64,000 nt of DNA from positions 508,874 to 572,873 of the forward strand of contig QPGO01000029.1 in the NCBI GenBank assembly GCA_008632985.1. Direction: 5' to 3'. Positions 1-27,226 of the stretch are shown piece after piece. The stretch is from Psammoneis japonica. Its lineage: Eukaryota. The notes beneath the pieces were generated by a model that saw only the letters and a program-made list of their open reading frames with translations, searched no databases and was not told where the DNA came from. The translations under genes and the position numbers were made by a program. How positions within the stretch are numbered: the stretch's first letter is position 1; each line of letters begins with the position of its first letter.

Positions 1-3000
1 CAGAGCTCATTGCACTGCAGTGTGGCCATGATTGACATGCCATGGATGGCTCTGACAACTTGGATGTAAAGGACTCTCTTGCCTTTCTCCAGGAACACAT
101 GATGTCCATGCAGGTTGGGATCGATGCTCACTGGCATGTCCACTGACACTCCTGTGATCTTCATCACAATCCAGTCTTTGCCTTCTCCAGCATCTCAGTC
201 TGCACAAATGCACCTGGAACATTGGTGCTCATTGCTCATTTTGTCATGTCCTTCATGGTTGTCAACAATTGCCATCATCAACAACATCCACTTGGGGGAT
301 GCAGCAGACTGGCTGACTTGTCTTTGTCTGGCCATTCTTGGGTTGGTTTGCCCCATCACAGACCATCTGCTTTTTTGTGTGACCGTCTCATTTCTTGGCG
401 CAAGGCCACCATGGCCTTGATCCTTTCAGTTGGAGCCATGTTCTTGACCAATGCTGGTGCAAAACACATGTTGTCATGCAGCTGTTTGACTTCTTTCTCT
501 GAGGCATCATGCCCCTTCTGGCCAAATGCTTTGAGGCACACTCATGAAGCAAATGTTGCTGGGCAAAGCATGAGCCCTCTCCACTTCAGAGTCTGTCATC
601 AACCTCACACATGAAGTGTGTGAGCACCATTGCTGTTCATGCATCACACTCTACATTGAACTTGGGTTGGGACTCAGGTTGGCATGGGAACAAAGGTGCA
701 CTTGCAGGGATTCAATGACTTGTCCATGTGCAGGTTCACAGCACAGTGACTGCTTTTGGGAGAATCAACAAAACATGGTTACAGGCAGGTGCTGTTGACA
801 CCAGGTGCTTCCAGGGCCATTGTGTTTGTCTTGTCATTCTCAATGGAAATGACAAGTTTCCCAAACTTGAGCTAAATGTGTTTGTTGCAGTCCAGGTTTC
901 TTTGTTGCATGACAGTGTGTGAACTGCAGGTGTCAGAAATCCCTTCTTTTGCTGGTGTGCATGTTTGACATGATGACAGTGTTCTTCATTGTGGCTTGCT
1001 TGCACATCAGTTTGGGTGTCGTCATGTGTGGCATGTGGTGTGTGGTGGCTCAGGTTTGCTCCTTGATGGTCTGAATGCTTCACCAAACTTTGGGAACATG
1101 ATCCTTGGCATTCACAGAGATGAGCTCTAGATTTGCACAATTTGCAGCTTCTGCTGGCATGTCCTTGAACTTGGGATCACACTCAATGAAGTCAATCTTA
1201 AAGCAATGGGGCCATGTTGCACTGTTGGAGCATCACATTGTCCAAGGCTTTGCAAACATGTTCATGCTTCTTGGACTTAAGTGTCACACTCAATCAGGGC
1301 TTGATTGTCTTGCCAACCGTGTGCAGCATCAGTGCACTGCTGCATGCTTCCACAATGTCGGTCATGCCTTCTCTCTGCTTTTTGCATGTCTCAGGTGGCT
1401 GGCATGTCAATGATGTTGTTCCTCTCATGAGAATGCTGCACATGCTTGGTCTTGCCTTTGAGTGCATGCATTGGTGGATCCCACATCGCCACCATTCTGT
1501 CCACATCCTCAGGCAGGATGGGTGGGTTCTTCAACTGATTGGATCACAAAAGCAATTTGAAATCCCTTGCACTGGGTGTTCCAGCCTTGCTGCATGGTCT
1601 CAATGCTTCCTCAGCATTCACCACCTCTTGTTCAGCGCAGCCTTTCATGCTCTGTTTCACAGTTGAAGCAACAGCTCCCAATGCACTCCTGTGCTTTTCG
1701 TTGGTCTTTTTCACAACCTTCTTGTCCTTTGACAGCATGCTCACATGCAACTCATCTTCTTGGAGTTCTTTTGCATGGTTGAAGAATTGCTGGCTTGGTG
1801 CAAATGTGTGCAGTCCAATGCTGTTGACTTTGAACACTCTGACCTGTTTGCCAGCAGTCTTCTCATCCAGTGGACGGAACTCATCTGCCACTTGGTTGTT
1901 GCACACAATGCAGCACTTGCTCTTCACATCCTTGAGACTCAGGATGTTGGCTTTTGTGTTCTGCAATCTGAGCTCCTTGTCACCCCACACTGGCACAGTG
2001 CAGTCATTGTCCAAAGTGTCCACTCCTGCACTGGTGGAAAGATCAATCTTGATCCTTGCCCATTGCACGTTGCTTGTGCACTGGTCTCCAGCTTGCTGTT
2101 GTGCCAAAGGTGGAGCTTTTGTCAAGGATGATCTCATCTAACTCAGTGCTGACATCAGCCAGGCTCAAACTCATCTCCGGTCCTTCTTTGACCTGTTCAT
2201 CCAGCTGGAGCCCTTGCCATGCAATGTTTCTTCTGCCAGAGCTTGCAGATCAACTTGATCTGTGGGCGTCAATGCTGGCATCATTGCTGCTCACTGATGA
2301 AGAGTCTTCATTTCTCTGTGCATGACTCTGTCCCCTGGCATCTGGTTTCCTGCTGGTGTTCTTGTGCCAGTCCTTCTGCAGGATGTCATCCTCACATTGC
2401 AATCTGGGGCTGACTTGTGGTTTGCCTCACCACAACAATGGCACATTGCTTTGTTGCTCTGCACATGACTCTGGTCTTGTGGGTTCTTGGGTTTGTTGTT
2501 GCCCTTGTCCTCTTTCTTGTCATAAAAACCAAACCTGGTTTAAAGTGCTGTTGTGCCTTTGCCTCGCAGCACCAATGCCGGCCAACCCACACTTCTGGCA
2601 CACCCCACTGGGGGTGTGGCAGAAGCTTGTGCAATTGGCCAGACACAGCACCTCCAGAAGAAGGTGCCCAACAGAAAAACCAGCAACAGCACACTTCTTT
2701 CAGACTTTCTTCTTTCAATCGGGGTCTTGCCATGGACAGCCAATTCTGTGTGCAGGTGGTGCAGTGTGCTTGATTCTCCTAAAATGCATCTGACAAAACT
2801 CTGCAGTCTTCAGCCAAATGCTTTTGATGTTTGTTGCATGTCACAGTCAATTTGGTCTCCCATCCATCTCTGAGAAGACTTTCTTGAACCTGCATCACGA
2901 CCATGTGCCAGCCAATTTTCTCCTCCCAGAGTTCTTTCTTGTCATTCAGACTTTCATCATTCTTCTTCTTGTTCCACCTCTTGCACAGATTGTTGTCTTT

Positions 3001-4449
3001 CAGCTGGTTCAGCAACACATCCATTGCCTTCTCAAGGGTCTTTGGGTGCAAATCTCCCTCCCCAGGCTCTGCAGTCTCTCACGAGGCTCTTCTTGAGACT
3101 CTTGTGGCAGCAGTCATCACTGTTCTCCATGAACAGGCATGCAGCCCATGGCTCAAATGCAATGTCCTTCAGTGTCTGTTGATCCAACAGTTTGGCCTTG
3201 GTGCAGCACTTGCACACTCCTTGACATTCTTGATGAGTCCACTCAACATCTTCCTGCCAAGGCCTTCACTTGCAGTGTCCCATTGATTCTTTAATCTTGA
3301 CAGGCAGTCATTCAGTGACTCCTCATTCTCTGATTGTTTCACTTCCAGCATGTGCTTCAGGGACTTGACAAGTGCATGAAATGGATGTTGACCTCTCATG
3401 GAGTTGAACACAAGTGACTGGATCAGCTCCAACATCTTGATTGGGTTGTCTCTGATCCTTGAGCAACTGGGGTTGGCCTGCACTCTTTGCTTTGTCAGCT
3501 TGGAGCAGCAATCATCTGGGATTGTCACAAATGTGGCACTCTTGTTTTCTTCAAGCTTCTTGCCTTTCTTGTTGCAGTCATGCAACTTGATTTTGTGCTC
3601 ATGTTGTTCCAGCTGCCTTTCTTCTCTGGCCCTCTCATTCACCATTTTCTGGCAATCTGTGTCTGATGCTGGTTGCACTGCTGCAGATGGCATCTGAAGT
3701 GTTGGACTCACACCAGCAAAAGTCATGCATGCCATGTCTTCCAGGGACCTTGCCAGATGCACATCTTGATCATGCTCCTTCTGCACATGGTTGACAATCT
3801 TTTCCTTGGCATCTTTGAACATCGCATTGTGGGAGTTGCTGTTCATCGATGATGGACAAAACTTCATTTCCAGCTTGAAGCTTTTCCTGGGGTCAGTCTT
3901 CTTGTCCCCATCACAGCCAGACTTCTGGCCTCTGCCACCCTTGCCTTGGCCATGATGCATGACCTTGGCCTTTGGTGCTCCATTCTTCTTCCTCCTCTGC
4001 CACTCACAAGGCAGCTGACTTGGATGATGAAATGGAGGTTGGCACCGCATGCACCAAACACTGTGCTTGTGACTCTTTGGAGTGAATGTTGAACCAACAA
4101 GTCAATGTCACCAAAAGGGAATCCTCTGGGGTTTCCTGTGCCACTCGTCACACTTGTCCTGGCTGCTGTGGCAGCTGTCGTGGTGTGCCTCTCTGGAGGC
4201 TCTCCAACAAACTTCAATCTCATGATGTGAGGGGCACCTGCTGACACCACAATGCAATTTGTGTGAACCAGATGATTCCATCCAAGGAGTGAGACAAAAG
4301 AAGGTTGGTTAGATTAGTGACGAGTGCACGCTCCATTCCAAAGTGTCGCCTGGTCCGCCGTGGCCGCTGGCAGGATCAGAAGCATCTTCTCTTTAACAGA
4401 TCCACTTCCGGGTCTCTCACATTTCCTGCTCATTCTAGATGCTCCAACA
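1..4449 (-). mobile_element. Decayed Ty1/copia (CoDi-like) LTR retrotransposon, family A, copy 1; runs off the window's left edge
   Basis: Minus-strand fragments in copia order: putative 5' LTR ~4449-4253 (TG...CA), PBS-like TGGTGTCAGC at 4249-4240, gag-like ORF 3169-4050, protease/integrase remnants ~550-2300, RT N-terminus (LKAFGQKGHDASEKEVKQLHD, 356-541). Many stops and frameshifts. Clear nucleotide similarity to the copy starting at 19627. Confidence 0.8.
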
Positions 4450-4632
4450 TGTGGACCTCTGCCACCAACTGGAGTTTAGAGCTGGAGTCAGCTGCACTGT
4501 TGGAGCAGCGGCATTGCTGTGGCTCTCCCATCGTTCTTTGGGAGGAGTGCCGCAGCTGCACGAAGTGCGCAAGAGACAACGGTCAACGCACAGACTCACG
4601 ATGAGCGAATGCTCGCTCGCTCGCTTTTCACG

Positions 4633-4816
4633 TGAATAAATGCTGATGTGCTGTCACGTGTGTAGGCAGTTTAAGCGCTGTTGGCGATTGGTCCACTGTC
4701 GCTTATTTAGTGGCCCCAGCAGCGTAACATCTCACAATTCTAGAACCTGTTGATGCTGTTCAACACTCTGTCTTGTCTTACACCCAATTCTTAGCTATCA
4801 TGGCAGCATTTATTCA
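4633..4816 (+). repeat. 5' LTR of the family B element
   Basis: Starts TGAATAAATGCTG and ends CAGCATTTATTCA (13-bp inverted termini). Aligns ungapped with 11144-11327. Confidence 0.95.
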
Positions 4817-5362
4817 CTTTGTCAGAGCCAATGCGCTGTGATGTTCATCGCCTGGAACGGGCATCGCGAACGGTGCGACGGTGTCGTTGCGATCGATCGA
4901 TTTTTGCGGCAAGCGCCATGTTGGTCCCATGGTTGCTCGCGCAATCGCTGAGTCCTTTACACACATCAACATTCATGGATATGAACGACATGCTCTTGGA
5001 GACCAGAGCTGTGATCCGTTGGACATGACGCTAGAGTGTGGAATGTTTGATCACGTGGATGGAACATGTTGGCTAAGACACATGAACATTCGTGACAAAG
5101 CCAACATGATGATTTATGTGTGGAGGTCTGTCATTTGATCACACACATTTCATTAATCAAAATACGTTGTCAAATTGTTTGGACACTGCACATGTGGACA
5201 CATGTCTGTTGGATGTCATTGCTTGGGAGCAACACCGCCTGCTCGCGGGTTCGCCAAGTAGAAACCGCCAAATCGGCACGAGAGCCACACATTTTTCTCA
5301 CTTTCCTCCACTCACACAAGTGGATGCTCACGCGTCGAAACGCGAACAACTGCTGATGCACC

Positions 5363-6782
5363 ATGGCCGCTGCCGCAGCCTTTGCCACCTGTCTTGCGCG
5401 TTGTGGACACAATGCACAGACGCGTGCCCACATGGCCCGCCAAGGCTTCACTGCGATCGAGGACCTGGAACAGGTTCCTTTGACGGAAATCACCGACATG
5501 ACCAAGGGCATTGTGAAGAGCGTGGATGCCGCCGCCAACCCCCAAGTCCGCTTTCCCCACCTGGCAAATCGCAAGCTCAAGGCACTGCATGCATGGATTG
5601 ACTGCCGCAGAGCTTGGAATCAAGAGCCGACCACTGCTCTCTTCACTGGCAACGTTGTTGGGACATGGACGGCACGTCTGACGGAACTGGAGCAATTCAA
5701 GTCCGCCGACTCGGATGACGAATCGGCCGCCAAAACCGCCGTGGAACTCAAGAACCTGTGTGACTGGCCTGCCTTCCAGGAGCCATTGGAGACCGAACTG
5801 CGTCACCACCGCAGCACCGTTGCCGGAGTGCCCCTTGTCCACCTGGCCAGGGAACATGAAGAAGTCACCGCCGAGATGTTGGCTGCTGCCCACACCACCA
5901 TTGACGAGGACCTTGTTGCTGCCACCTGTCTTGCAGGAGCTCAGTGTGCGCAGGATGGGCAACACCTGCATGACCTCTTGAAGAAGTTGGTGATGGGGGG
6001 CCCGGATGGGCTTTTGTCAAACCTTCCAATCGCAATCGCGATGGTGCACTGCCTTCTTCGCACTTGAGAGGCAGGCGGAAGGATCGGCTGCCACCACCAC
6101 CCAAAAGAACCGTGCACATGCACAGATTGCTGCTGCAAAGTGCACCGGATGGGGTCGATTTACATTTGACCAGTGCACCCAGCGTCATCAAAAGGCTCAC
6201 AAGGACTTGTCTGAGCTTGACGAACCGGTGGCCGAGACCAAGAAGGTCTCTGACTTTCTGAAGGGCATCTCCAACCCCAGGTTGGAAACTGGAAGAGCGC
6301 AGTGGATGGAGACCCAACGAAGCGAGCGGACTTCTAGGCATGCCAGCAGCACATGAAAACTCTGGTCGAGAATGCCAAGAACCGCAATGCCGACGCTTGC
6401 GGGGTTGCATCCATCCAACGCCACAACAATCGGCGCACTGACCCTGGTGGGAAGCACCAACCTAAAAAGGATGAGCCCAGAATCCGGGCAGGCCATTGTC
6501 CTGTTGAAGAGTGGAGTGCTCTTGACGGTCCTGAATGAGAGCAAGTCCAAAAGCTCCGCGATGCCAAGAAGGCCGAGAAGAAATGCAAAGCTGCTGCTGC
6601 GTCCTCGGAGGCTGAGTCGGTCGATGCCGAAACTCGCGCCGCAAAGAAAGTGGCTGTTGCCGAGCCTGCTTCTCAACCCACTGACACACCAGAAAGACTC
6701 TGAAGAGCCTGACAAACCTGCTGCCAATGCAGGCACCCAGTTCGGACGCAGTGCGCACAAGAAACCTCAGAAGGAGGAATGA
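5363..6782 (+). pseudogene. Frameshifted gag-like gene of the family B copia
   Basis: Overlapping ORF pieces 5363-6067, 6006-6356 and 6353-6538/6372-6782 between the LTR and the protease. Motifs resemble diatom copia gag (DWPAFQEPLETEL, KKVSDFLKGISNPRL). Confidence 0.7.
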
Positions 6783-9700
6783 ATGGTTGCGCCAGCACTG
6801 GGAGGCATGGAACCGATTGTTGCCACACCTGCTGGCACTGTTCATTTGTCCAGGCGATTCTTGAAGGATGTGCACGTCTCTCCATCATCTGCTGGAAATT
6901 CAGATGACGAAGCCACCACTGATTTGGACTCGCACGCTGACACGTGTGCCGTTGGGTCCAATTTTGTGATGTGCTCTGACATCGACAGAACTGTCATGGT
7001 TCACCCCCACTCCGAAGAGCACGCACCAATGGAAAACATTCCCATTTGCACGGCTGCCACCATGTGGGTTGATCCAACTGATGGACAACCATGCCTGCCA
7101 CTGGTCCACGAGGCTGTGTTTTTTGGGGACAAGATGACCAACACCCTCCTGTGCCCCAACCAACTGCAAGCGAATGGGCTGATTGTCCACGACACCCCTC
7201 GCCAGTTTGATCCGACTGGCACACACTCCATTTCTTTCCCTGACTCGAAGATCAGGATCCCATTGTGAATGCGAGGTGTTGCTTCAGTCTTTGATTCACA
7301 CAAGCTGACAAAGGAGGATCTGGAGAACCTCCCCCGGCTGGAACTCACATCACCCCTGAGATGGGAGCCTTCTGCTGATGCCCTGGCACAAAAGGAGGAA
7401 GCGCATGCATGTGCCAGTGCGCACCAAGGATCAGCAAAGTCGGACGGACGGTCGGCGATGATGAATGCGACCAGGTGTGTCGCTTCCATTCATTCACACC
7501 AAACGTCCTATCACGACGAGAGTGTCATTGTGGATGCCAATGACGACGAATCACTGCATCACCGCCTGGTTGCTCAGGTGAATGTCTCCCACAACGACAC
7601 TGAGGGAGACGGGCTCCACGACCGGCATGACTTAGATGTCCACCCGGATTGTGCTGAGCGGAGACGGGTGTGTGCACTTTCGACCTCGAGTCGTGCATCG
7701 ACTGTCACGCCCGAGATGCTCTCTAAAAGGTGGAACATTGGCCTGACGGCTGCCAAGAACACCCTTGGAGTGACAACCCAGGCAGGGGTCCGCAATGTCT
7801 GCACACCATCTGAACAGAAAGTCTGGAAGAAAGCCCCTTGGCTTAAGTTCCCTGCTGTCAAGGGACGACTCTACTCCGATCAGATGTTTTCGAAGGTTAA
7901 ATTGATGCATGGCGAGACAGGAGGAAGCGTGTTTACCAACGGAAGAGGGCATGATGGGTTCCATCCTTGGAAGAGGAAACAGGACCACCCAGACGCCGTC
8001 ATGTCATTCACACATGACGTTGGCGCGCCGCAGGTCCTTGTGTCGGATGGCGCACCGGAAATGGCAGAAGGCCAGACCAAGGAGATCTGCAAGGAACACA
8101 GGATGCACCAGGAGGTGTCCACTCCACACAGCCCATGGCAGAACCTGGCCGAGGCATCCATTTGTGAGTTGAAGAAAAGAGTCCGTGTGACTCTGCGCCG
8201 GACTGGCGCTCACAGGCGACTTTGGTCCTGCAGCGCCAAATGGACATGTGATGTCCGATGCATGATTGCGACTGGCACATCGGACATGGGAGGACGAGTC
8301 CCAGAAGAGGAGGTGACAGGTTCAACACCCGACATCTCTTCCCTCTCTCTCTTTGATTGGCATCAACCTGTGCATTGCTGCATGCCTGTGGCGGAGTTCC
8401 CACACGAAAAGAAGTGCATTGGCCATTGGCTCGGAGCAGCTGACAATTGCACTGACGACATGGCATTCATTGTTTTGCCCGAATCAGGCAAACCCATCAT
8501 CCGGAAGGATGCGTGGGCCATGCCGGAGGATGACCTTAAAACTCCGGCGATCCTGACAGATCTTGCATCGGTCGAACAAGCTTTGATCGAACGGCTCAGC
8601 ATCCCGGAAAAGGATGCCAGTGCTGACTTCCCTGAACTCCCTGATGACTTCATGGACGAATGGGACGATGCCGTTGAACCCGTGGAACCCGACGCTTCCA
8701 AACTGGAAGCTGATGAGTGCACCCCGGAAGGGCCAGATGAACATCTCACGGCTCAAGTCATGTTGCCACGAGGAGGCGAGCTGACTCATGCTAGGGTCAT
8801 TGCACGCAAGCGAGACAGCGACGGGGTTCCCATCGGTGCTAGGAACGACAACCCTGTCCTAGACTCGAGGATTTACGACGTGGAATTCCCTGATGGATCC
8901 ACTGATTCCTGTGCTGCCAACATAATTGCAGAGAACCTGTTCACTCAGATCGACTCTGAAGGGAATGCCCACCAGATCATGAAGGAAACAGTCGATCACC
9001 GACGTGATGCCCGTGCTGTGACGGCCGATGATGGGTGCACAACGACTGAGACTGGCAGGCGTGCTCCTGGGAGGACGACAGTGGGCTGGGACCTGCAAGT
9101 CAAATGGAAGGATGGGACCACATCCTGGGTTCCTCTCAAGGATTTGAAGGAGTCCAACCCAGTCGAGGTTGCTGAGTGCGCTGCAGCGAACAAAACAGCC
9201 AGTGAACCAGCCTTCAACTGGTGGGTCCGAGACGTCTTGCATCGCAGGTCGAGGATCCTGAAGAAAGTCAAGTCGCGTTGCTGGAAACGTGCGCACAAGT
9301 TCAGAATTGAACTCCTGAAATCTGTTGAGGAAGCCATGGAGACAGACAACAGAATGGGGACCGACTTCTGGTTCAAAGCCATCAAGAAGGAAATGCATGA
9401 CGTCATGCCTGCGTTCGAATTCCGCGATGACGATGCTGCGCCGGTCGGGTGCAAACACATTGACTGTCACATGATCTTTGACATCAAGAGCACTCTCCAA
9501 CGTAAAGCGAGGTTCATGGCCGGAGGCCATCAAACCAATCCACCTGAGGAATCGACACATTCCAGCGTGGTGTCGCGTGACAGCATTAGGATGGCATTCA
9601 CTGTGGCAGCTCTGAATGACCTGGAGGTCCTGAGCGCTGACGTTCAGAATGCCTGCTTGAACGCACACACTGAGGAAAAATGTCACACCACTGCTGGCCT

Positions 9701-10991
9701 GGAATTTGGGAAGCAGAACGAAGGAAGGCCGGTGATCATTGTCCGTGCCTTGCATGGTCTCAAATCTTCAGGTGCAAGATTTAGGGAGCATGTGGCAGCC
9801 ACTCTGCGGGACGCTGAATTCGAGTCTTGCAATGCTGACCCGGACATCTGGATGCGGGCTGCGGTTGAGCCGGATGGCTTCAAGCACTGGGAACATGTGC
9901 TTGTCTACGTGGATGACTTGTTGTGCGTCTCCCATGAACCTCAGAAGGTCATGGATTGCATGAGCTCCAGGTGCACGCTCAAGGACGGAAGCATCTGCAA
10001 GCCGGAAGAGCACTCAGGCGCCCAGATTGGAAAGCACCAGCTGTCTGACTCGGATGGTGAGACACACTGGGCCATGTCCTCTGACCTTCGTGTCAAAAGG
10101 GCATTGGCTGACGTTGAATTGGAGCTTAAGAAAACTGACAGGCGTCTTCCGACAAAGGCGTTGACACCCTTGAGCTCGGGACACAGGCCTGAACTGGATG
10201 GTTCACCCGAGTTGAACACCAAAACAGCCAACTGCCATCAAGGCCTTGTCGGTGTGCTGTGGTGGGTGGTTGAACTGGGGCGAGTGGACATTTTTGTCGC
10301 TGTCTCGCTCATGTCCTCCCACTTGGCGGCACCACGAGTTGGACACCTGGACGAGGTGCTCCATGTCTTTGCATGCTTGAAGGCTCATTCTAAGTCTGCG
10401 CCAGTGTTCGATGACACTGAGCCCGTCTTTGACAAGAGTCGCTTCACCAAGTGTGATTGGGAAGAATGTCACCCTGGCGCGGCTGAACCAATGCCGCCAA
10501 ATGTGCCAGAGGCACGCGGGAATGGCATGACTGCCACTTGCTTTGTCGATGCTGATCACGCCGGATGCCGTGTGACGTGCAGGTCCCACACTGGGATCCT
10601 GATCTTCATCCAACGAGCGCCCATCTTGCATTGCTCTAAGCGGCAGAATGCCACAGAGTCCTCTGCTTTTGGGTCGGAGTTCGTGGCTATGAAGACTGCA
10701 GTGGAGCAAATTGAAGCCTTGCGTTGCAAGCTTCGGATGCTCGGAATCCCCATGGATGGGGCCACCAACGTTTTCTGCAACAATGAAGCTGTCTTCAAGA
10801 ACTCAACTAAACCAGAGTCCACTTTGAAGAAGAAGCACAATGCAATTGCCTGTCACAGGACTCGTGAGGCACAAGCCGCTGGAATGGTGCGCATTGCTTG
10901 GGAAGATGGGCACACGAATCCAGCGGACACACCAACTGAGTTGTTGCCTGGACCGAAGCTCCGGGAAATCATAAGTCACATCCTGTGGTGA
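6783..10991 (+). pseudogene. Copia pol polyprotein (aspartic protease, integrase, RT, RNase H) with one in-frame stop at 7266-7268
   Basis: Protease LDSHADTC; integrase SDGAPE...PHSPWQNLAEASI; RT DVQNACL, ALHGLKSSGA, VYVDDLL; RNase H FVDADHAG, SSAFGSEFVAM. Conserved Tyr residues are mostly replaced by Cys/His. Confidence 0.93.
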
Positions 10992-11143
10992 GTCCCAAAA
11001 GGGGACAAACCGAACGGGTTTGCCGCGCAGGTGCGGCTTTTTCCCACCCCCAAAATGCAATTGCTGCCCTGGAACAGGGCAGCATCAGGTTGCATTTGTC
11101 AGTCAATCTGACCCAAGCAGAGCTGGCGTCAGTTCGAGGGGAC

Positions 11144-11327
11144 TGAATGAATGCTGATGTGCTGTCATGGATGCAGGCAGTTTAAGCGCTGTTGGCGATT
11201 GGTCCACTGTCGCTTGTTTGGTGGCCCCAGTGGCGTGACATCTCACAATTCTAGAACCTGTTGATGCTGTTCAACACTCTGTCTTGTCTCACACCCAATT
11301 CTCAGCTGTCATGGCAGCATTCATTCA
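11144..11327 (+). repeat. 3' LTR of the family B element
   Basis: TGAATGAATGCTG...CAGCATTCATTCA; 14 mismatches to the 5' LTR by manual alignment. Confidence 0.95.
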
Positions 11328-13421
11328 CACGCACAACATTCTGGATTTGAGATTCCAACATGTTGCAATGTGATGGATTTCCAGATTGAGGATGAGGATG
11401 CCGCAACAGCATTTTTTCTGAGAAGCGTTTCTCCATTGCGTTGCCTCGAGACGATGAGGCCATCTCGACCATCTCAATGTTTGCTCATCGTGACACTCAA
11501 TGCACCACAAGGTTCAGGATCACATTTTGGCCACGTCCAACCTTTTTGACACCAGCACACAGTCCTGCGAATCATCATCAGTCATACGTCTCCGAGGTCC
11601 AGCAGACTTCACCAGATGCGGCATGCGGTGGCGCAGGCCAGAGTCTGCTGAAGACTTCTCCCTCCTTTCGCGCCTCATCCATCTGTCTCGAATCAAGGCA
11701 GAATGAAGTCGATGACGCCAATGACAGCGCAAAACTGCTGGGGAACACAATCGGCTCAACACTTTCTTTGCCTTCATGGCACAGCATAAGCTGCTGCGGC
11801 TGGACGACGCGACACAGGACCAGTTGATGGTCTGATTGTCTGATTGTCAAGGAAAGGCATTGTCAATGTCGCGCCCACGAAATGCTGTAGAATCGAAGCT
11901 TGCCAGACTGTGCTACAGCATGAAAGACATCCAAGTGAAAGATGACAGGTGTGGTGTTGGTGTTTGCGCAAGTGACGACAAAGGCATTCTCGGTCGAGTT
12001 CATGCAAGTGGAGGCCACGACAACGCACTGCATCAGGCGATGACATGAAAATTTCCACCGCAGCTAGTCCGACATGCATGTGCACCTCGTTGTCATCTGG
12101 CCAGACAACATGAGACGAAGAAGAGGGACTTCTCCAGAATGAGAAACTTCACGTTTCGCAAGACGACACTACAACCGACGACACATTTGACACCATTCAT
12201 TTGGGAGTGCCATCTTCATTCCCATGCTTTTGTGGGCTGTTAAGTGCAGCATTTGCATCTTCGACTTTCTGTGCTCCGACTCCCTGAGCCGGAAGCTCAT
12301 TTGCACACCGCCTGCTCTACATTGCTCTGTGAATTGATGAAAACAACCGACACTGCACTTTTGGGTAATGTGAGTGCCACGGCCTTGCCCGCCACTCTAT
12401 TTGATTCATGGAAATGTGCTCGCTCGTTTTGATTCAAGGTCGTGTTTTGGGCATTCTCGTTGAACCAGCCATCGGTGCTGGCAAGCAATTGTCTTCAGGT
12501 TTCTTGCGCGGTCTTGGGTGGCAGAGATCTGGTTGTCTTCATTCCACGGCATTTTTGTTGGGCAGGACGAGGAGCTTGCGATTGGATGTGGTCACCTGTC
12601 CCAATGCTTGCCGTCGCAGCAATTCATGTCCCGATGTGATTTCTTCCATGATGGCTCTCGGGCTCAACGAAACCTTGGGTCTTTGTCTTTGCACTGGGTG
12701 AGGCATCCGTGAAAACGGCTTGAAGGCTTGTCCCATTGTCACAACTGTCATGGAGTGCGTCGAAGACCTGTGCTTCTGGCTCGTCTTTTGTCAACTTCAG
12801 AAGCTGCGTGCTCCAACACGGTGATCATGGTCTCTTGCAGATGTCTCAAAAGAGCGGATCTGGAGGTTTTCTCAGCTCTCAATGGCAGCTGCTCTTAATG
12901 TGGCGTCGGGCTTCTGGTGTGTCGCTGTCATTGACACTCTCAGTGCAAACATGGGGTGAAGTTGACGCCGGCATCTTCAGGGCATCCTACCGCACAGTGT
13001 GTTTGTGCTGGTCAATGGCACCTCCTTGGCATCTGCGGCAGGGATCGAGTTCAGGCAATCATGTCGGCGAGAAGCAGGCTGGACAGGTTGGAATCGTCAT
13101 GGCATTTGCATTGTTGTTGGTCATGCCCGCCATCGCTGTCACCAGTGTTGGAATTCTCAGAGAGGCACTCATTCAAGACAAAGAGTTTCTCATGCCACTG
13201 GAAGAAGCAAAAAGCCATTGGCCGCTGCCCACTTTTTCGTGTGTTTCCGCCGCAGCCATTGAGCGCATGCTGCATTCCACGGGACGGATGGGGGCATCTT
13301 TTGGATGGGAATCATTGCAAGCTTACGAGCTGGCAATGCTGATGCATTGTTCATGACAACCGCGGACTGTTGCAATTGCTCTCTCCCGCTGTGAGGGACG
13401 TTTTTCCACTGCTTGGGGTTT

Positions 13422-14405
13422 TCAGATGTACACACGCAGCCGATTGCAGTTCATGAACCGAGATGAAAACCATGATGGTCCCTGCGCAAGACGTGCCTTC
13501 TTGTGTCCCAACTTCTGCTCGAGCTCTTCCATGCGCTTGCGGACACGGCGGTGCTCTTCTTGGTTGGCGTCATCTCCATCGTCGTTGCCAGCCTCTTCAG
13601 AAGCAACTGAGCATGCTTGAGCCACTGCTGGCACCGGCTGCGGTGCCTCCTTTTTGTCGAGCAGCAAGCATCGTGTGATTCTGGCATGCAGTTCCGGGAG
13701 CAGACACTTTCCCGTTCCGATCTTGAGGCAGTCGTCGGGAAAGTCTATGTTCTCACCAAGGCCCAGGTTGTCAAGTTTCCAAAGTGACTTCACACAACCA
13801 ATCTCATCGAGGCGGCAGATGCAGGCTTTGTTTGCCATCTTCGTGTCCTGCTGGACTTGATTGTTGATGAGCATGGTGGCACAGGGTTTGGAATCGGAGT
13901 GGGTTCGGAGGTGGTTGACCGTCTTCAGACCATTGACACTCTTCGCATGGGCTTGAAAGTGATCAATGTGACGATTTGCAGCTTGAACTCGACGTTTGTT
14001 GTTTTCATCCTTCTTGTTCTCCTTCTGCTTGATCGTTGCTCGTAGGTTCAGAATCTCCTCCTCCAACTGGACATCCTCCAACTGAATGTCATCAACCAGC
14101 TCCCTCTCCTGTCGCATGCCCTCGACACTGTCTCCCCTGCTTTGGAGACAGCCATCAAATGTGTCGCACAGCTGTGCGTTGTTGCAGTGCACGCAAGTCT
14201 CCAACAGGTCCTCGTCAAACTCATCCGCAGGCACATGGACAAACCTGGAATCGCTAAGTTCCTGAACCGTCAGGCACTCGGCGACGCTCCTCACGTGGCG
14301 CCTCAACATGTTGGGCGTGAAAGCCGCCGCGTGCGCCTCTCCATTGTCAACAAGCATTCCAGCAGCGGCCGCACTGAACATGGTGAATGGCAGCAGAGAA
14401 TGCAA
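13422..14405 (-). pseudogene. Hypothetical coiled-coil/acidic protein, TpA-eroded (probable pseudogene or TE-associated ORF)
   Basis: 327-aa ORF with protein-like composition (RQERELVDDIQLEDVQLEEEILNLRATIKQKE; RVRKRMEELEQKL) but almost no Tyr. No recognisable family. Confidence 0.4.
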
Positions 14406-17400
14406 TGCAACAAATGACGGATGTCAACATTGTGAGGGTGGCTGGGGAGACTCATTTTTTTGCGTGTGGGAAAAGCACTGAATTCGCACGTAGCGCTCAA
14501 GTTGGACTAACGGCTGCGCAGAAAAATGCAGTGCACAAATGCAGTGCTGACTCCAGCTGCAATGGGCATCGACAACGGCTGTGTAGAAAAAGCACTGAAT
14601 TTGTACGCAGCATTCATCATGCACACAAAAGGTGACAACGACAACTTCTCTGCGTAGAAAAATGCACAAATGTTCCAGCACTGATTCTCCACCGGTGACG
14701 GCAGATTACACTGGCGAAACGTGCCAGGACAGACGTTGCATTTTTGTGTCATGCCAGCTACGGTGTGCGTGCACACAGCTCATGCACCAACCATAAACAA
14801 GATGTTTCAGAAGCACGCAACAACACGTTCAATTGGCGATTGAAATGAGCAAATTTGAGTGCGTTTGAGCACATTTGAGCACATCTGAACACATCTGAAC
14901 ACATCTGAACAACAGCACCAAGGGCTGCCATGAAGGTTGTCGGCTGGTTCTGGCAGCCAGCCAAGCAGTGTGAAAAACGAGTTGTTTTGGCACCAGCAGA
15001 TTGGCTTGATTGAAACAGGCTGTTTTGCGCCACTTGGCAAGGGTCAAATGGGTCAAACAATGGCTCTTTTCCATTCTCTCCATGTTGCAAAATGCAAGAG
15101 GAACATGTGCAGCTCTCCAAAAAACACTCTTTGTTCAACCCTCGAGGAGCATGCGGTGCCGGAAGTTTGTTGCAGGGCATTTGCAGTTTTGCCATCTCTG
15201 GTTGAAGCTTTCATGTCTTGCCAACAATCTTTCCTCTTGAGCTCTGCAGCTCTCACCAGGAGTCAAGTGCATTTTGAGCATGCCTGGCACACTCTGGCTT
15301 GGCTGTGTGGCTGCAGCCACAGTCGTCTCTCCAGTGGCTTTCACACACACCCAGAGGAAAATGCCCCCTCAGCTCTTGGCAAAAGAGCACAAGGCTGCAC
15401 TGCCTCCCTGCTGGCTGCACAGGGGTTCACACCCAAAGAAGCCATGGTCAATGCATCTGCAGCCCCATTTTACAGTTTGCACCAGGTTTCCACCAAGCCT
15501 GCAGCTCAAATTAGATGGCAAGAAAACAAGGGGGGCTGTTCATTGGCAGGACAGTGTGTGCCATCAATCAACAGACCAAAGATTTCACAAGTCTCTCCAG
15601 CCTCTTGAACCAAGCTAATCTGGTGCAAATGCAAAAAAAAAAAGCATCTGTCAGCCTTTTTGAGATCACAACAACCACATGACATGCTCTTGCTTTGCAC
15701 GCACCATGTGCCAAAGCAACAGCACAATTTTCAAAGTGAAATGGCCAGCTGACCACTTCTTGATGGCTTTGCCATGCTTGTCAAAAAAAGCCTTTGAGCT
15801 GTTTCTCCATCAGGTGCAAGAAATGGCAACAATGTGCAAGTGCTGTGGGGCTTGGTGCCACCTTTGATGCTGGTGCAAGCAGACTCCTCATCTGCTGTCA
15901 TCTGAAGATCATGCCACCAAATCAGCCCACTGCAAATGATTTGGGGAAGACTCTGCAAAGAGCATCTTGAAGCATGTGATGCATTTGCTCTGTTTCTGCA
16001 TCATTGTCATCTCTTGCAACTGCCTGGTGAGCTCAAGCCCAAGGCCCATGAGTTGGGCTGCACTGAACTCACTGGTGGTCATGGCATGGCAGGCTGCCAC
16101 ATCCCCTGTGTGCCAGATGCCAGAATGTGCACTGCATGCTGAGATGCCAAGGGATGGGTGATGGGCCTTTTGAAAAATTTGAAAATCAGCAAAGAGGTTG
16201 AAGATTGCAATTGATGTGAAAAAGTGCATGCTGGAAAAGAGCCACAGCAATTGGTGCATCATGCACACATCTTCAAGACAGGGCAAACATTTTCTCCTGG
16301 CAAAGCCCAGCACATGCCATTGCTGCAAGTTGTGTTGCCACATTCATCATGTTTCTTCACACCCATGTGCCTTGATTTTGCCACCAACTCATTGTGGGCA
16401 AACATGTCCATCCATGTTGAAACATGTTCACCCATGTTGATTGCACACTGCAGCCATTGCAAGTTGCTGAAAGTTGTTGGGGAAAAGCAGCAGAACCTGG
16501 CAAAATGGTGCCAAAATGAGGAGTTGTGCTGTTCCCATGGGCACAGTTGCACAGATCTTTAAAGACCTTCAAGAGAGCCTGAGTTGTCTTTTGTCATCAC
16601 TTGGCAATGGCACCCAAGGACAGCACCTGCATTCTCCAATGAAGAAGACAAGGCAGTTCCAGCAACAGCCTGACAAGTGACCACTCATCTGAGAGCAAGC
16701 CCTTTGCAAGCAAGAGCCGCCAAAGCATCATTGACAACGCGAAGCCCCCCAGCCAAGCAAAGGCTGAAAATTCAGGAAAGGAGGCTGATCTTTGCCAAGA
16801 GACCTTTTTGCAAAAGCTCCTCCTCCTTCTCCTCACTGCTTCCAACATGGCAGAAGACCTTTTCCCATGTTCTCATGGTCGCATTGGCCAACCAGCCCTT
16901 GCTGGTGCCGGCATTGCAGCTGCTGGTGGCACATGACCAGCCCATGCTTGTGCTGCAGCTGCTGATGGTGGTGATTGCAATCTGCCAGCAAGGACCAGTG
17001 GAAACTTGTTTGTGTCTGTCAGGCCCACCAAAGCTCTGGCAGACTTGGGCACATGCTGCATCATCATCCACAAGCTGACCATCCTAAGAAGAGTGGGGAT
17101 CTCTTTGCTCAAACTGTCTCCAATGTTGACATTGGCCTGCATGCCCCCAACTCAAACTGACCATCCCTGGTGTGACTGATGCACACAACTTCAACAAGAT
17201 CAACCTTTGGGCAATTTTGAGTTGTGGTGCATGGGTCTGTTGACTCCACACAGTTGGTTGCACAAGCATCCAGTGTGGCTCATGAGCTGGAGGAGGACCC
17301 AGTCCACAGATGGCAAATCACAAAGACTCTCTGCATCCTTCCCAATGGAGCACATTGTGCCAAAGTGACCACATCACAAGGTGCCTCACCCCCAGACACC

Positions 17401-19626
17401 ATTGTCAACAAAACCCTGTTTTGCCTGAGCACTGCTGCTCCAGGCTTGTCATCACATGAGGAGCAGCAGTTTGTTCCTCTTCCCTGGTGAGAGTTTGCAC
17501 ACAAGAAGAAAGCCCAGGCTTGCTCAGGATGTCTGTGACTGTGACAATGTTGATGATGTCTGCTTGGCAATGCAAGGGATGGATTTGAACCCTTGGCACA
17601 CATGCACCACTTGGTGTTTGCAGTCTGGCTGTCACAGCATGTGCACAAAATCTTGTCAACCTTGTGGGCATGCAAGCAAATGCCAATGGCAAAAATGACA
17701 GAGTGGTGGTTTTGTTGAAGCAAATGATGTTGAGGAGGAGGTGGACAACAATGATGTCAAGGTGGAGGAGGAGACAATGGCTGACAACTTGTCACAAAAT
17801 CTCCTGGAGGAGCATCTTGATGATCTCCAGACAACACTCAGGCTGACCTCAGCAGCAGTGCAGTGGATGACTTGATTGATGCCAATGAAAGCATTGTCAA
17901 TGATGATGGTGCCCCAAGCAATGAGGAGCCAATCATCTTTGTTGCCAGCAGGGCTTGCTGCAAAAAGCAACCCCACACAAGTTGGGTCCAACCAGTGCTG
18001 CAAGCAGAGCAGGCATCTTTGCAAGGACCATGGACTTGCACCTGGCAAGCTGGTGCTCAAGCAGCACAAAAACATGGACAGTGCACAGTGTTCTTTTGAG
18101 CATTGTGGTGACAAGCAACACTGTTTTGCTTTCATTTGCCCATGGCCATTTGGAGGTGCAAGGTGGGCTGGCCAGTGATTCTTTTTCTTGAAGCCCTGCC
18201 CCAATGCATTTTTCTCTTTCCTGTGCCAAGCTTGGTGAGTGGGTGTGTTCTCAAATCATTTCAAGGCAAAAAAGCAGATGTGTTCAGCATGCTGCAGGAT
18301 GGCAGATGCCAGAAATCACATGGAAAAAGTGTGAAACACCAGCCAGCAGAAATTGTCCTCAAGGTTCTTTGCCCTTTTGTCTGTGCAATGCAAGTCCCAA
18401 CAACCAACTAACCACACTCTTCCATGCAGTGCTTGGCAAGGTCAGTTGTTGTGTGGCAGTTGTCAATGCAGAGGATGTGGTCTTTCTTGTGAGAGAGGCC
18501 ACATTGATGGGTCAGAGATGAGCCTCCAGCATCTTGGGTGTGGTGTTGGTTTCTTCTGCATTGTCTTTTCTGCTGTGGATGTTGAAGAAATGCACACAAG
18601 CAGACTCAGCACAGCACAGAGCAAACACCTTCACCACATGCTTGATGGGCTTTGCCAGCATGCACTGGACAAAGGTGATGGCTCTCTCTCTCCTTGCAAA
18701 GAATCACACTGTCATCTGTCATCATCAGCTTCTTGCCACAGCTCCATCCTTTCTGAAGTTTGGAAGACAGAAGATTGAGTGTTGGAATGACTTTGAAGAA
18801 TGGGTCATGTCCTGGCAAACCTTTTGGGTGTGCTCTTGAACTCTGAGCAAAGTGAACATTTTCTGAAACCAAGTGCATCATGACTCATCACATTGCAAAT
18901 CCATGGGCACCCCCCAGCCACATGGCTCATGCTCCCAACAATGCAAGTGCAACCAACCAGAGCCCCTTGATCTGCAAAGCCTTGCTGTGGCAAGCAAGGC
19001 CAGCACACAACATCCTCTCATGAACTTGAATTTTTTCAGTTCCTGTTTGGCATCACACCTGTGCTGGGGAGTGGGATTCTCTTTGTAGAGCCTCTGAAAG
19101 TGTGGCAGGATTTCCCTTTGTTGCATGGCACCTCTTCTGTGGCAGACCTCTGATGCTGCACTCATCTCTGGTGCATGTGCAAGTCAAGTGTCCCAGGCAC
19201 CCCCAGTCTTCAGCATCTTGGTCTGCTTTCCAAGCTTCATGAGTGGCTTGTGCTGGCTGTTTCTCTGCTTGCAGAAGGTGTGCTTGTTTCTTTTGTCCAG
19301 ATTTCTTGAACTGAGACTGTCGAGAGTGACTTGTCCCATCACTTCTTGAACCTGTCACAGAACATGATGACAAGAAATGGCACCCCACAATCTGCCAACA
19401 AGTTGCGAGCATTTCCAGCAGCTGACCACTTGCAAACTTGCAGACAATGTCAAGCTGCAAATTGAGCAGCTGTGATTTGTTGGGGTGCAGCTCTCACACA
19501 ACCTTGGTGTCACTTCATGATGACACACCAGTGTGGATCCACAAAAAAGTTGCAATGCTTTCGCATTTCAGCCCACCACAGTGTGAGTGCTTTTGTGAGT
19601 GGAGCACCCTGCACATCCACTCCATG

Positions 19627-22600
19627 TGTTAGAGCATCTGGAGTGAGTGGGAAACAGAAACTCAGAAAGGAAATGTTGAAGATTTGGTGACACCTGACAA
19701 GCAAGTCTGCTTGTTGCCAATCTTGCTGACCTCATTTTGTCTCACTCTTTGGAGTGAGTCATCTGGTTTGCACAAATCTCATTGTGGCATCAGCAGGCAC
19801 CTGCTGCATTGTGAGATTGAAGTTTGTTGAGGACTTTCAGGCAAACTGCAGCTGCCACAGCAACCAGGACAAGTGTGACAAGCAGCACAGGAAACCTCAG
19901 AGGACCCCCTTTTGGTGACATTGATTTGTTGGTTCAACATTCACTCCAAATGGTCACAAGCACTGCATTTGGTGCATGGAGACAGTGACCTCCATTCAAT
20001 CATTTGACACACAGGAACCTGCCTTGTGAGCAGCAGAGAAGGAGGTGAATCTGGCAGAGGAGGCCAAGGCATCAGCCAAGGCAGAGGTGACAAGTCTTTC
20101 TGTGACAAGAACAAGAAGACCAACCTGAAGAAGAGCTTCAAACCAGAGTTTCATCTTTCATCAATGAACAGCAACTCATGCAATTGAATGTTTGAAGATG
20201 CCAATGAAAAGATCATCAATCACATGTGCAGAAGGAGCATGGTCAAGGTGCACATTTTGTGGGGTCTCTGGAAGGTGTGGCACACAGAAATTTCTCTGGC
20301 AAGAGTCCTGCATTGGCACTGCCAATGACAATGGTGCCAGAACCAGGTCAAGCAGATTGCCAAAGTGTGGCAAACAAGAGAGCATGAGAAGAAAGACAAC
20401 TCAAGCATGAGTGCAAGATCAAGCTGCACAACCACAGTGAGAAAGTGAAGAAGCTTGAAGAAAACAAAACCACTGCATTTGCAGTGATCAGTGATCCTGG
20501 ATGATTGCTGCACCAAGCAAATGAAGCAGAGAGTGCAAGCCAACCATGGTCACCAGAGGATCAGAGATGACCCCCCCAATCAAGCTGCTGAAGCTGATCA
20601 TCCAGTCACCAACACTCAACTCCATGAGAGGTTGACATCCATTCCATGCACTTGCCAAGTCCCTGAAGCACATGCTGCAAGTGAAACAATTGGAGGACGA
20701 GTCACTGAATGACCACCTGTCAAGATTTAAGAATCAATGAGATGCCACAAGCAAAGAAGGTCTTGGCAGCAAGATGCCAGATGGACTCATCAAAAACACC
20801 GAGGAGCACAAGGACTGCACCACCCCAGTGGAACAGACCACATTGAAAGACCCTGCATTCAAGACATGGATGACACACCTGTTTTCAGAGAACAGCAATG
20901 ACTGCTTCTGCAAAAGAGCCTCAAGAAGAGCCTTGCCAGAGACTGCAGCCTGGGGAGGGACTCACATCAGAAGACCCTGGAGAAGACAATGGATGCACTG
21001 CTGAGCCACCCAAAGGACAACAATCCATGCAAGAGATGGAGCAAGAAGAGTGGTGAATGTCCAAGTCTCAGGAACTAAGACAGGACTGACAACAGGTCCC
21101 AGAACCCACAAGATCAAAGTCATGCCCAGAGTGGTGATCAAGGTGGCAACACAGTGTGCTGTTGTTGTGGTGTGAACCAAACCACAAGTTCCCAGACTGC
21201 AAGTGTGAGGATGAATCCCACAGAAGAGCTGGTGCAAGGACAGTGGAAAGAAACTGGGTGCCAGGGGACATGGTCACACACAAAGAGACAAAGACCAGCA
21301 TTCATCAGCGAGCATTGACAATGCTGGCATTGACACCTGCAGGTTTCTTGGTGTTCCTCACCAAGAAATGAGGTGTTTGCACAAAAGGGCAAATTGTCTG
21401 CAATGGCAAACTGACCCCAGAATGGTTGGACAAAGATGAATCAGCGAGCCCTGCTGAACCCCTTGAAGGAATGTTGACAACAGCAATCATTGACACCCAT
21501 GAAGGACACAGTGAAATGAGCACCAATGCTCCAAACGCATTTGTGCAGATGACAACACTGGAGCCTGGAGAAGGCAAAGACCAGGTTGTGATGAAGATTG
21601 CAGGAGCACCAGTGGACATGCCAGCAAGCATTGATCCCAACCTGTGTGGACCTTGTGTGGTTCCAGAGAAAGGCAAGAGAGTCCCTCATGCCCAAGTCAT
21701 CAGAGCCATCTGCAGTGTGCCAATCTTGGCTCTGCTGTGGTGCAATCAATTTTTGGAAAGACTTGGAGAAAACAGGATTCAAGTTTGGCCCACATGTGAT
21801 TCTTTGTGCATTGCCAATCATGCAGTCAATGGCAAGCAGTGCAGCCCATGATTTAATTTCATGTGGATGACCCCATTGTTGAGCCACAAGAACCCAAAAG
21901 CAAATGACAAGTTTCTGAGCTGGTCAAACAAGATGAGCTGCAGCCATGGTGAAATTGTTGCTGCATGAGGGAAGAGACATGGCTGTTCTGGCATGACCCT
22001 GGATTTCAGCCAGAAGGGCAAAATGAGAGTTGACATGACAGACTGTGCTTGCAAGATGATTGACCAATTTCCAGAAAAGTCAAACAGTGCAGACATTGCT
22101 GTGACACTGGCTGGAGAAAAGACTTTTGACACCTGTGGGACAAGCTCATCAGATGCAAAGGCTCAGACCTTCCACAAATGTGGGTGGCCAAGAGACTGTT
22201 CCTGTCCAAGAGAGGCCAAAAGGATGTGCACCTCGCTGTCACTGCATCATGCATGGAAGTGAGAGCTCAAACACAAAGGACCTTGGAGTTGTCAAGTGGC
22301 ATGTGGACACATCATTTTTGCAGCACATCCCAATTTCAAGAGCCACGCCAAAGGAGGAGTTGTGACAATGGGTGGTGGAGCAGTGCAGGCCACTTCAAAG
22401 TGCAAGAAGCTCCACACTCCAAGAAGCACAGAAGCTGAACTTGTTTGAGTTGACAATGCCATGGCTGTGACACTGTGGACCAAGCTGTTCTTGGAACACC
22501 AAGGGCATCCAATCAAACATCCTGCACCAGGACAACAACAGTTCCGTCCCACTGGCAACTGATGGGTGCAATTGTGCCGGCAAGCAATCGCAAGCACTCA

Positions 22601-26276: not shown

Positions 26277-27226
26277 ATGTTTGGTAACGTTGAAGCTGTC
26301 GGAAATAGCATTCTTGATATAGGCGCTGGTGGTAGCTCCGCAGTCAAGCCTCAGCCGATGATGCTTGGAGAACCCGGGGCGTTTGACATTCCTAATGTTT
26401 CAGATGTGAGTACTACGTTGTGTTGTTTCTTATCAGTGCCGATTGTAGCTTCCTCTTTTGTTTGTATGTGGGCGACTCACCTGTAACGCCTCGTAAATAC
26501 ATGCTTATTGTACAGCCAGCTCGTTACTGCCGCTCCAACACGGCGTCTGCGTCGGGCAACAAGGACTCGGCGCAAGAAGTCAAGTTTGCCAAAGGTACCA
26601 CGACGCTCGCCTTCAAGTTCAACGGCGGAATCATTGTATCGGTAGATTCTCGTTCCACCATGGGAAATTACATTTCCTCCGGTACAGTCAAGAAGATTAT
26701 CGAGATTAATCCCTTTCTGTTGGGAACCATGGCTGGCGGTGCTGCTGACTGCTCCTTTTGGGAGAGGAACCTCGGTGTACAGTGCCGCATGTACGAACTC
26801 CGCAACGGACGTCGCATCTCTGTGGCGGCAGCGTCCAAGCTGCTTGCAAACACCATGAATGCCTACAGGGGTTATGGACTCTCCATGGGCACCATGATTA
26901 CCGGTTGGGACGAGACCGGACCCCAGCTCTATTATGTGGACAATGACGGTACACGCCTCAAGGGAAAGTACTTTAGTGTCGGATCCGGTTCGACCTATGC
27001 CTACGGTGTGCTCGACACGGATTATCGAGAGGATCTTACGGTGGAAGAGGCCATTGACCTTGGAAAGCGCGCTATTTACCATGCCACTCATCGGGACGCG
27101 TTCTCTGGCGGCATCAACAATCTCTACCATGTCACCAAGGAGGGATGGGTAAAAGTTCACGCGATTGATGTCAATGACATGCACTATGAGTTTGCGGAAG
27201 AAAGGGCAGCTCGTGCGGCAGCGTAA
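26277..27226 (+). CDS. PSMB5: 20S proteasome subunit beta type-5 (two exons: 26277-26405, 26516-27226)
   Basis: Propeptide cleavage motif [41 protein letters not shown]. Phase-0 GT...AG intron 26406-26515. Confidence 0.96.

Follow-up and report, generated by a model that had tools for sequence, protein, structure and literature searches.

Hypermutation confined to the dinucleotide TpA has been described in the chlorarachniophyte alga Bigelowiella natans, where it affects integrated DNA of nucleocytoplasmic large DNA viruses (NCLDV) and virophages (Mettrop et al., bioRxiv 10.64898/2026.01.13.699255). In mutation-accumulation lines of this organism, 231 of 302 nuclear mutations fell within one giant-virus and one virophage region; of these, 230 were A→G or T→C changes, without exception at TpA, with a rate of ~6e-7 per site per generation, about 1000-fold above background and seen in some lines only. 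Low-TpA coding sequences in B. natans were reported to be enriched for reverse transcriptase and DDE domains, and an ADAT2-like DNA adenine deaminase, converting A to inosine that is read as G, was proposed as the cause, without proof. The main text of this preprint contains none of the words LTR, retrotransposon, CpG, context or diatom. Apart from it, a literature search found no description of TpA→TpG/CpA hypermutation, in diatoms or elsewhere. Here we report a closely similar signature in a 64,000-nt stretch of the genome of the diatom Psammoneis japonica (contig QPGO01000029.1, positions 508,874 to 572,873; the whole stretch is referred to below as the window), which carries a long terminal repeat (LTR) retrotransposon at its positions 4633–11328. 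The element is most probably a dead member of a high-copy Ty1/copia family in which, after integration, TpA was converted to TpG or CpA by a process acting on both strands of chromosomal double-stranded DNA.

The process is not categorically new; what is new is the diatom host, the retrotransposon target and the degree of saturation. In both organisms TpA undergoes A→G and T→C changes on either strand of chromosomal DNA that is foreign or silent while the rest of the genome is normal, and clusters poor in TpA and rich in CpA and TpG exist in B. natans as well, as far as the main text of the preprint describes them. The hosts differ, being a rhizarian in one case and a stramenopile in the other, as do the targets, which are viral in B. 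natans and comprise a high-copy LTR retrotransposon along with tandem and inverted repeats in the window. The reported TA odds are 0.45 in the B. natans NCLDV region, compared to 0–0.2 over tens of kilobases in the window, and the mutations were directly observed in B. natans, whereas in the window they are read from their end state. As in Bigelowiella, depletion is confined, with TA odds of 0–0.2 in repeats and 0.65 in host genes, here over one 64-kb window.

The two LTRs of an element derive from a single template and do not differ at the time of integration. The LTR pair was found by a repeat search and the mismatches were scored by ungapped comparison over 185 bp; a preliminary description of this DNA, made from the sequence alone, had given a length of 184 bp and an end at 11327, which is one base short (185 bp, ending at 11328). 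The matching CACG on both sides indicates that both LTRs belong to one insertion. They are now 92% identical, with 14 mismatched positions. Nine of these place a TA of the 5’ LTR opposite TG (4638, 4705, 4709, 4726 and 4797) or CA (4663, 4779, 4792 and 4811) in the 3’ LTR, corresponding to five A→G and four T→C changes. TA positions make up 22 of the 185 in the LTR, yet take nine of the 14 mismatches (binomial p=5e-6), and all nine changes run in one direction (two-sided p=0.004). The remainder comprise a double mismatch at 4720–4721 (CA in the 5’ LTR, TG in the 3’ LTR), a CG in the 5’ LTR that reads TG in the 3’ LTR (4657), and two mismatches outside every dinucleotide class (4659, T/G, and 4660, G/A); apart from TA and CG positions, the two LTRs disagree at 2 of 153 sites. 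The preliminary description had counted 11 TA in one LTR and two in the other (in TTAA and CTAG), nine TA sites reading TG or CA, and an additional CA/TG site. Our recount returned the same figures, the additional site being that at 4720–4721, and both of the LTR examples quoted there are present in the sequence. For comparison, metagenomes supplied 35 related copia loci with a length of 5 kb or more as a control; a terminal repeat pair was present in 16, although some of these pairs may reflect tandem copies or overlaps in the assembly and not true LTRs. In these 16 pairs, 15 of 141 mismatches were of the TA type, distributed 6 vs 9 between the two sides, and there were no TG/CA doubles (Fisher p=1.4e-5 for the window pair against the control pairs).

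The direction of change is recorded in the coding body of the element, as tyrosine, alone among the residues, cannot be encoded without TA. In the open part of the polyprotein, Tyr accounts for 4 of 1,240 residues (0.32%), with His at 4.8% and Cys at 3.1%; among the 120 homologous matches listed, Tyr ranges from 2.9 to 4.6% and the medians for His and Cys are 2.4% and 1.3%. At the 22 columns in which at least 80% of 60 aligned homologues have Tyr, the element has His at 10, Cys at nine, Arg at one and Tyr at two, encoded by CAY (10), TGY (9), CGT (1) and TAC (2). Other conserved columns were kept in 436 of 500 cases (87%; Fisher p=3e-15 vs the Tyr columns), retention per residue type ranging from 56% for Ile, which is replaced by Thr and Met, up to 100%. 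Since Tyr codons need TA, the replacement of conserved Tyr by His and Cys indicates that TA was lost from the element, T→C and A→G having contributed equally. In the codon that reads CGT (Arg; 10089–10091), both bases of one TA have changed, giving CG. Related copia loci from metagenomes have TA odds of 0.48–0.95 in 80 of 80 cases (median 0.735), compared to 0.14 in the element, indicating that TA avoidance is not a trait of the copia family.

Contigs of one public run, X1, were aligned to the element and its flanks, yielding 7,349 contig pieces. X1 was the one public run found to contain the stretch, alongside two more from its sample, and no RNA run was among those listed. Summed contig depth was 4,277–15,875 over the element, compared to 66 and 169 in the flanks, figures that are not a copy number, and 1,276 of the 1,423 variant places among the contigs were transitions; the high summed depth and the many variant places point to a high-copy, diverged family. 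Among the 40 of these variant places that were listed, the family state was comparable at one of the nine LTR sites (4779–4780), where the 5’ LTR reads TA, the 3’ LTR reads CA and 94% of family contig depth reads TG. TA is the shortest path for the state at insertion, since it needs one change in the element and TG needs three. The CA/TG pair at 4720–4721 is likewise best read as a TA at insertion that was lost differently in each LTR. With one comparable family site, the polarity of the LTR pair rests on parsimony together with the Tyr evidence from the body. The preliminary description had the direction right, as the conserved Tyr columns and the need for a TA ancestor at the CA/TG site bear out. 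It had also held that TG or CA in the family consensus would signal a gain of TA in the 5’ LTR; at the one site compared, most contigs do read TG, yet TA at insertion is still the shorter path.

Gain of TA is the hallmark of repeat-induced point mutation, or RIP, of ascomycetes, which resembles the process in the window in several respects: the transitions are dinucleotide-specific, affect both chromosomal strands, kill transposons after integration, make copies look more diverged and can come to a halt where unique genes begin. RIP consists, however, of C→T changes mainly at CpA and creates TpA, whereas in the window TpA is destroyed. RIP recognises duplicated DNA, whereas here the 5’ LTR is as repeated as the 3’ LTR yet was spared, and flanks at single-copy depth were changed. 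In place of the TpA excess and CpA/TpG deficit typical of RIP, TA odds of 0–0.2 are accompanied by TG/CA odds of 1.3–2.3. It is very improbable that a RIP-like C→T process made TA from CA or TG in the 5’ LTR and that the 3’ LTR preserves the state at insertion, although 4780 is TG in most family contigs where the 5’ LTR has TA, and a TA-poor master copy is conceivable. No TA excess occurs anywhere in the window, in which the highest TA odds per 2 kb are 0.76; the 5’ LTR has 0.82, and the tract 4633–5260, in which TG and CA are still enriched, has 0.44, at or below the host value of 0.65. Conserved Tyr codons were lost and none were gained. Both the CA/TG pair at 4720–4721 and the three states at 4779–4780 (TA, CA and TG) need a TA intermediate, and the TG/CA doubles found in other repeat pairs of the window (see below) are not produced by TA gain. 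Diatom DNMT4 has been presented as kin of the fungal RID enzyme, in a paper whose passages on RIP give no mutation signature (PMC9998398).

The difference between the LTRs, the changes on both strands and the like state of non-retroelement repeats and flanks together place the change in chromosomal DNA after integration. The preliminary description had proposed this timing, which is now supported by the strand symmetry, by the TA-free non-LTR repeats and flanks, and by the Tyr evidence. Change before integration, through ADAR-like A-to-I editing of the element RNA or deamination of single-stranded cDNA, has only a remote chance of being the source of the pattern. ADAR activity resembles the process in that A is read as G and U or T is preferred before the target, a preference for U that is quoted in the B. 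natans preprint (bioRxiv 10.64898/2026.01.13.699255), and edited retroelement copies are known from animals, as in an account of APOBEC editing of LTR elements (PMC4866542). ADAR acts on RNA, however; editing of sense RNA would give only plus-strand A→G, and deamination of minus-strand cDNA only T→C, whereas the two are equal here. A single template would also leave both LTRs matching, and the tandem and inverted repeats that are not retroelements share the signature, as do the flanks. APOBEC3 likewise causes hypermutation of the deaminase type, which destroys retroelements and leaves a footprint tied to sequence context, but it converts C to U on minus-strand cDNA before integration (plus-strand G→A), in contrast to A:T→G:C on both strands afterwards.

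The depletion extends well beyond the element. Over 1–26000 and 28501–41000, TA odds are 0–0.2 and TG and CA odds are 1.3–2.3, whereas the host genes from 41001 on have TA odds of 0.65 and CG odds of 0.98; flanking DNA at single-copy depth is TA-poor as well. Repeat pairs in this DNA carry TG/CA double mismatches, which arise when one palindromic dinucleotide (TA or CG) is resolved oppositely in two copies: there are 43 between the tandem pair 30154–33048 and 34914–37830, 58 between 2964–4305 and its inverted copy, and 18 between 22276–22675 and 23765–24167. Stop triplets on both strands of the depleted DNA number 1778 for TGA, 143 for TAA and 130 for TAG. The near loss of TAA and TAG results in long open frames on both strands, whose products are nearly without Tyr (0–0.33%). 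Majority-rule polarizing of the tandem copies at 30955–31751, 35737–36533 and 39944–40743 was dropped, as at saturation the derived state is often shared by two copies and the direction is misread.

A technical origin, in which modified bases in heterochromatin cause base-calling or consensus errors that make TA and CG appear as TG or CA, is hardly credible. In its favor, the records do not name the platform used for the assembly or for X1, and only 0.60 of the sampled words of the stretch occur in X1 contigs. Against it, both flank/LTR junctions (4410–4690 and 11299–11600) are reproduced with no differences by two X1 contigs at single-copy depth, which take in three of the kept TA of the 5’ LTR and three of the changed sites of the 3’ LTR. 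As the k-mer contigs of X1 reach 315 kb and are exact at these junctions, the underlying reads appear to be accurate. Thousands of contigs from other copies differ mostly by transitions, and errors would not pick TG or CA at random per site, equalize Tyr→His with Tyr→Cys, or stop within 250 bp of a gene.

The loss of TA spares the first 185–630 bases of the element. Each LTR had at least 12 TA at insertion, of which 1 of 12 was lost in the 5’ LTR and 10 of 12 in the 3’ LTR (Fisher p=0.0006), and the two survivors in the 3’ LTR, TTAA and CTAG, belong to the best-surviving contexts window-wide. Moving inward, TA odds fall from 0.82 in the 5’ LTR to a lower value over the next 440 bp and to 0.09 beyond; after 5260, no TA occurs until 6161. 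Similar sparing is found at the proteasome beta-5 and tRNA-Gly genes listed in Table 1. At the tRNA gene, TA outside the 72-nt gene is kept as well, and selection on the tRNA alone is therefore no explanation for this island. A shielding of the 5’ end from the mutator fits these islands and is a reasonable reading of the gradient. As regards targeting, the 5’ LTR lies in the bin of highest summed contig depth and yet is spared, while the right flank, at single-copy depth, is depleted. Together with the two host-gene islands, this single case argues against repeat pairing and for a local state, and targeting by silent chromatin appears to be favored over repeat pairing.

The same asymmetry would arise if the mutator had struck the 5’ end too and the 5’ LTR and leader had then been recently overwritten by gene conversion from an unmutated sister copy, or if two copies had been joined in assembly. 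We regard this as somewhat unlikely, though it deserves serious consideration: the family is highly repeated by summed depth, so donors exist, and the spared tract keeps more CpG than the body (odds 0.91 vs 0.69), as a younger tract would. On the other hand, since the LTRs differ at so few sites outside TA and CG, any donor would need to have been a sibling that was nearly identical but still unmutated. TA also drops stepwise inward from the LTR and not as one block, and the sharp spared islands at two host genes need no conversion. A chimeric assembly is opposed by the CACG matches on both sides and by the recovery of both junctions at single-copy depth. The suggestion in the preliminary description that the promoter-side LTR was partly protected therefore holds in so far as it fits the TA odds gradient and the gene islands, but gene conversion would look alike.

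TA survival depends on the neighboring bases. In the depleted parts of the window (34,140 bp), and with the host genes of the window as the only baseline, survival relative to host-gene density is 0 for ATAT, 0.005 for ATAC/GTAT, 0.31 for CTAA/TTAG and 0.45 for TTAA. Two models, in which the base after the A or the base before the T sets the mutated strand, gained no clear backing: by hand tally, the direction of change at informative Tyr and LTR sites was split about evenly, six for and five against one of the two, and a comparison of k-mer excess was confounded by starting composition.

A slower and separate decay of CpG to TpG and CpA runs alongside the TA loss. It resembles the TA process in that TG and CA are produced from a palindromic dinucleotide, as expected where 5-methylcytosine is deaminated in methylated transposons, and it is present in the window as a second signature, with CG odds of 0.03–0.1 in the older repeats; 8 of 46 conserved Arg columns in the element read W, C, H or Q. 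It differs in acting on CG rather than TA and in being far from saturation in the element. As CG odds are still 0.69 where TA is nearly gone, the two processes run at different rates, that at TA being clearly the faster. In parts of the window CG is nearly gone too (odds of 0.0–0.15 in 1–4000 and 15001–25000). The copia element and its flanks, unlike these CG-less repeats, keep CG at ~0.7 with TA nearly gone, and the CG-less and CG-keeping repeats may be either two age classes or two chromatin classes.

In the mechanism that we envisage, A:T→G:C change would take place after insertion at the A of TpA on either strand. This would have removed ~90% of the TA of the body and 10 of the at least 12 TA of the 3’ LTR, leaving the 5’ LTR nearly untouched (1 of 12 lost) and the adjoining 440 bp partly touched. 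The same process would have emptied all other repeats of the window of TA, stopping sharply at host genes. The data themselves establish the direction, the dinucleotide, the involvement of both strands, the timing after integration and the local sparing, whereas the enzyme, the mode of targeting and the cause of the 5’ sparing are what we infer from this pattern. Adenine deamination is one candidate chemistry. In some protists, TpA is where modified thymine is concentrated, and oxidation of the thymine of TpA to 5-hydroxymethyl- or 5-formyluracil, which mispairs with G, would leave the same signature: each chemistry yields A:T→G:C at palindromic TpA regardless of strand, and sequence cannot separate them. 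Thymine oxidation is nonetheless unlikely to be the source; adenine deamination by an ADAT2-like enzyme is the one mechanism so far proposed in print, and that only as a candidate, in the B. natans preprint (bioRxiv 10.64898/2026.01.13.699255).

Several points weigh against a post-integration mutator as the full account of this locus. A single LTR pair was examined, and the process is read from its end state, with no mutation seen happening. At the single comparable site (4780), most family contigs read TG and not TA. X1 may be the source sample of the window itself and hence not independent biology. Some of the body’s TA loss may be older than the insertion, if a mutated copy was mobilized in trans. 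In addition, the viral hypermutable regions of B. natans, as described in the preprint, keep many TpA, one of them more than the genome average (bioRxiv 10.64898/2026.01.13.699255); the saturation in the Psammoneis japonica window thus exceeds the documented case.

The features of the element and its surroundings are collected in Table 1. The element has the hallmarks of an LTR retrotransposon, namely two direct LTRs, TG...CA ends and a short target-site duplication of 4 bp; the usual length of this duplication in copia elements is 5 bp. The open frame of 1240 aa lies at 7269–10991 on the plus strand. Within it, RVT_2, the copia-type reverse transcriptase, matches residues 725–896 (Pfam, E=3.5e-12), passing the curated cut-off, and upstream of it the integrase domain rve matches weakly at residues 247–289 (E=0.0097, under the cut-off). 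End-to-end alignments of the polyprotein were obtained with 666 RVT_2 proteins, with identity reaching 59%. In tblastn with two homologues (1370 and 1384 aa), the matches span from 6924 or 6867 to 10988 and run across the in-frame TGA, indicating that this copy is dead. No further copy of the element was found by blastn elsewhere in the 64-kb window, and a 27-nt stretch of the LTR had 0 matches in metagenome_contigs and 0 in viral_contigs.

Table 1. Coordinates of the copia element, its parts and the surrounding TA domains, in positions of the window.
Feature	Position	Strand	Details
TA-depleted repeat domain holding the element	1–26000	none	TA odds 0–0.2 per 500 bp outside 4501–5000
Target-site duplication CACG, left copy	4629–4632	none	matches the four bases directly after the 3’ LTR
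5’ LTR	4633–4817	+	185 bp, TG...CA ends, 13-bp terminal inverted repeat, 11 TA, TA odds 0.82
Leader and start of internal region, partly spared	4818–5260	+	8 TA, some of them in the sensitive contexts ATAT and ATAC
Hypermutated body	5261–11143	+	26 TA in 5883 bp; TA odds 0.09, TG 1.70, CA 1.32, CG 0.69
Ty1/copia polyprotein remnant	6924–10991	+	aligns end to end with homologues of ~1370 aa
In-frame TGA interrupting the polyprotein	7266–7268	+	homologues have E, S, T or D there (alignment)
Purine-rich tract GAGGGGAC, in the place of the polypurine tract (putative function)	11136–11143	+	directly before the 3’ LTR
3’ LTR	11144–11328	+	185 bp, 2 TA (TTAA, CTAG), TA odds 0.18
Target-site duplication CACG, right copy	11329–11332	none	directly after the 3’ LTR
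Normal-TA island on the proteasome beta-5 gene	26001–27500	+	TA odds 0.38–0.90 per 250 bp; edges sharp within 250 bp
250-bp island of normal TA around tRNA-Gly(TCC) (28354–28425)	28251–28500	+	13 TA; between TA-free repeats

Further repeats lie in the depleted DNA. A large inverted repeat (9–4324 and 19710–21746, 72–90% complementary in pieces) brackets ~15 kb that includes the copia element; a big DNA transposon with long terminal inverted repeats could account for it, as could one repeat present in two inverted copies, and its open reading frames gave no Pfam match. From 29288 to 41000, there are three tandem units of ~4.2–4.8 kb that are 84–91% alike. Frames of 965 aa (30080–32977) and 871 aa (35009–37624) in these units contain internal 36/42-nt repeats and have 0.2% Tyr in both; neither had a Pfam match, and the frames may be open only through loss of TAA and TAG. 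An 84-bp tandem duplication, 94% identical, is located at 27364–27531, on the edge of the TA island and just 3’ of the proteasome gene.

Long, intronless frames make up the host genes, whose products are a telomerase reverse transcriptase, a short-chain dehydrogenase, a RING protein and an ankyrin protein. The gene for telomerase reverse transcriptase (52491–55844) is a single 1117-codon frame without introns, with a closest database homologue at only 53% identity; of its 26 homologues, the two with a named source are from the diatoms Thalassiosira profunda (39% identity) and Aulacoseira (37%; read from a partial name). A protein atlas placed telomerases in clusters spanning several phyla and was uninformative about the taxon. 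For the proteasome beta-5 protein, the named sources among the best 120 homologues are all diatoms except for one bolidophyte, several of them read from partial names, with a best identity of 89%. The host genes thus point to a diatom as the source of the window.

These findings have practical consequences for the analysis of such genomes. Raw LTR divergence is 14 of 185 (7.6%), compared to 2 of 153 (1.3%) outside TA and CG positions, an inflation of about six-fold that confirms the warning in the preliminary description that dating by LTR divergence would be biased here. TA-free DNA has only TGA stops, producing long false open reading frames on both strands, and the Tyr-free “proteins” that these encode confuse annotation. 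For the biology of the process, the LTR pair places the action of the mutator after integration, and the unlike treatment of two identical repeats 6.5 kb apart bears on the choice of target. Tentatively, and with a probability that approaches but does not reach one half, we propose that diatoms possess a mirror image of fungal RIP: a DNA-level, TpA-specific A:T→G:C mutator, directed by chromatin or transcription state and not by repeat pairing, that strips TpA, Tyr codons and the stop codons TAA and TAG from silenced transposons while sparing active promoters, genes and even a 250-bp tRNA island. Given the same signature in a rhizarian alga, such a system would be old within the clade of stramenopiles, alveolates and rhizarians (SAR). 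Some diatom species are transformable, which makes the enzyme and its targeting directly testable. If TpA hypermutation also operates in diatoms, and to saturation on retrotransposons, it would be a widespread eukaryotic genome defense and not a curiosity.

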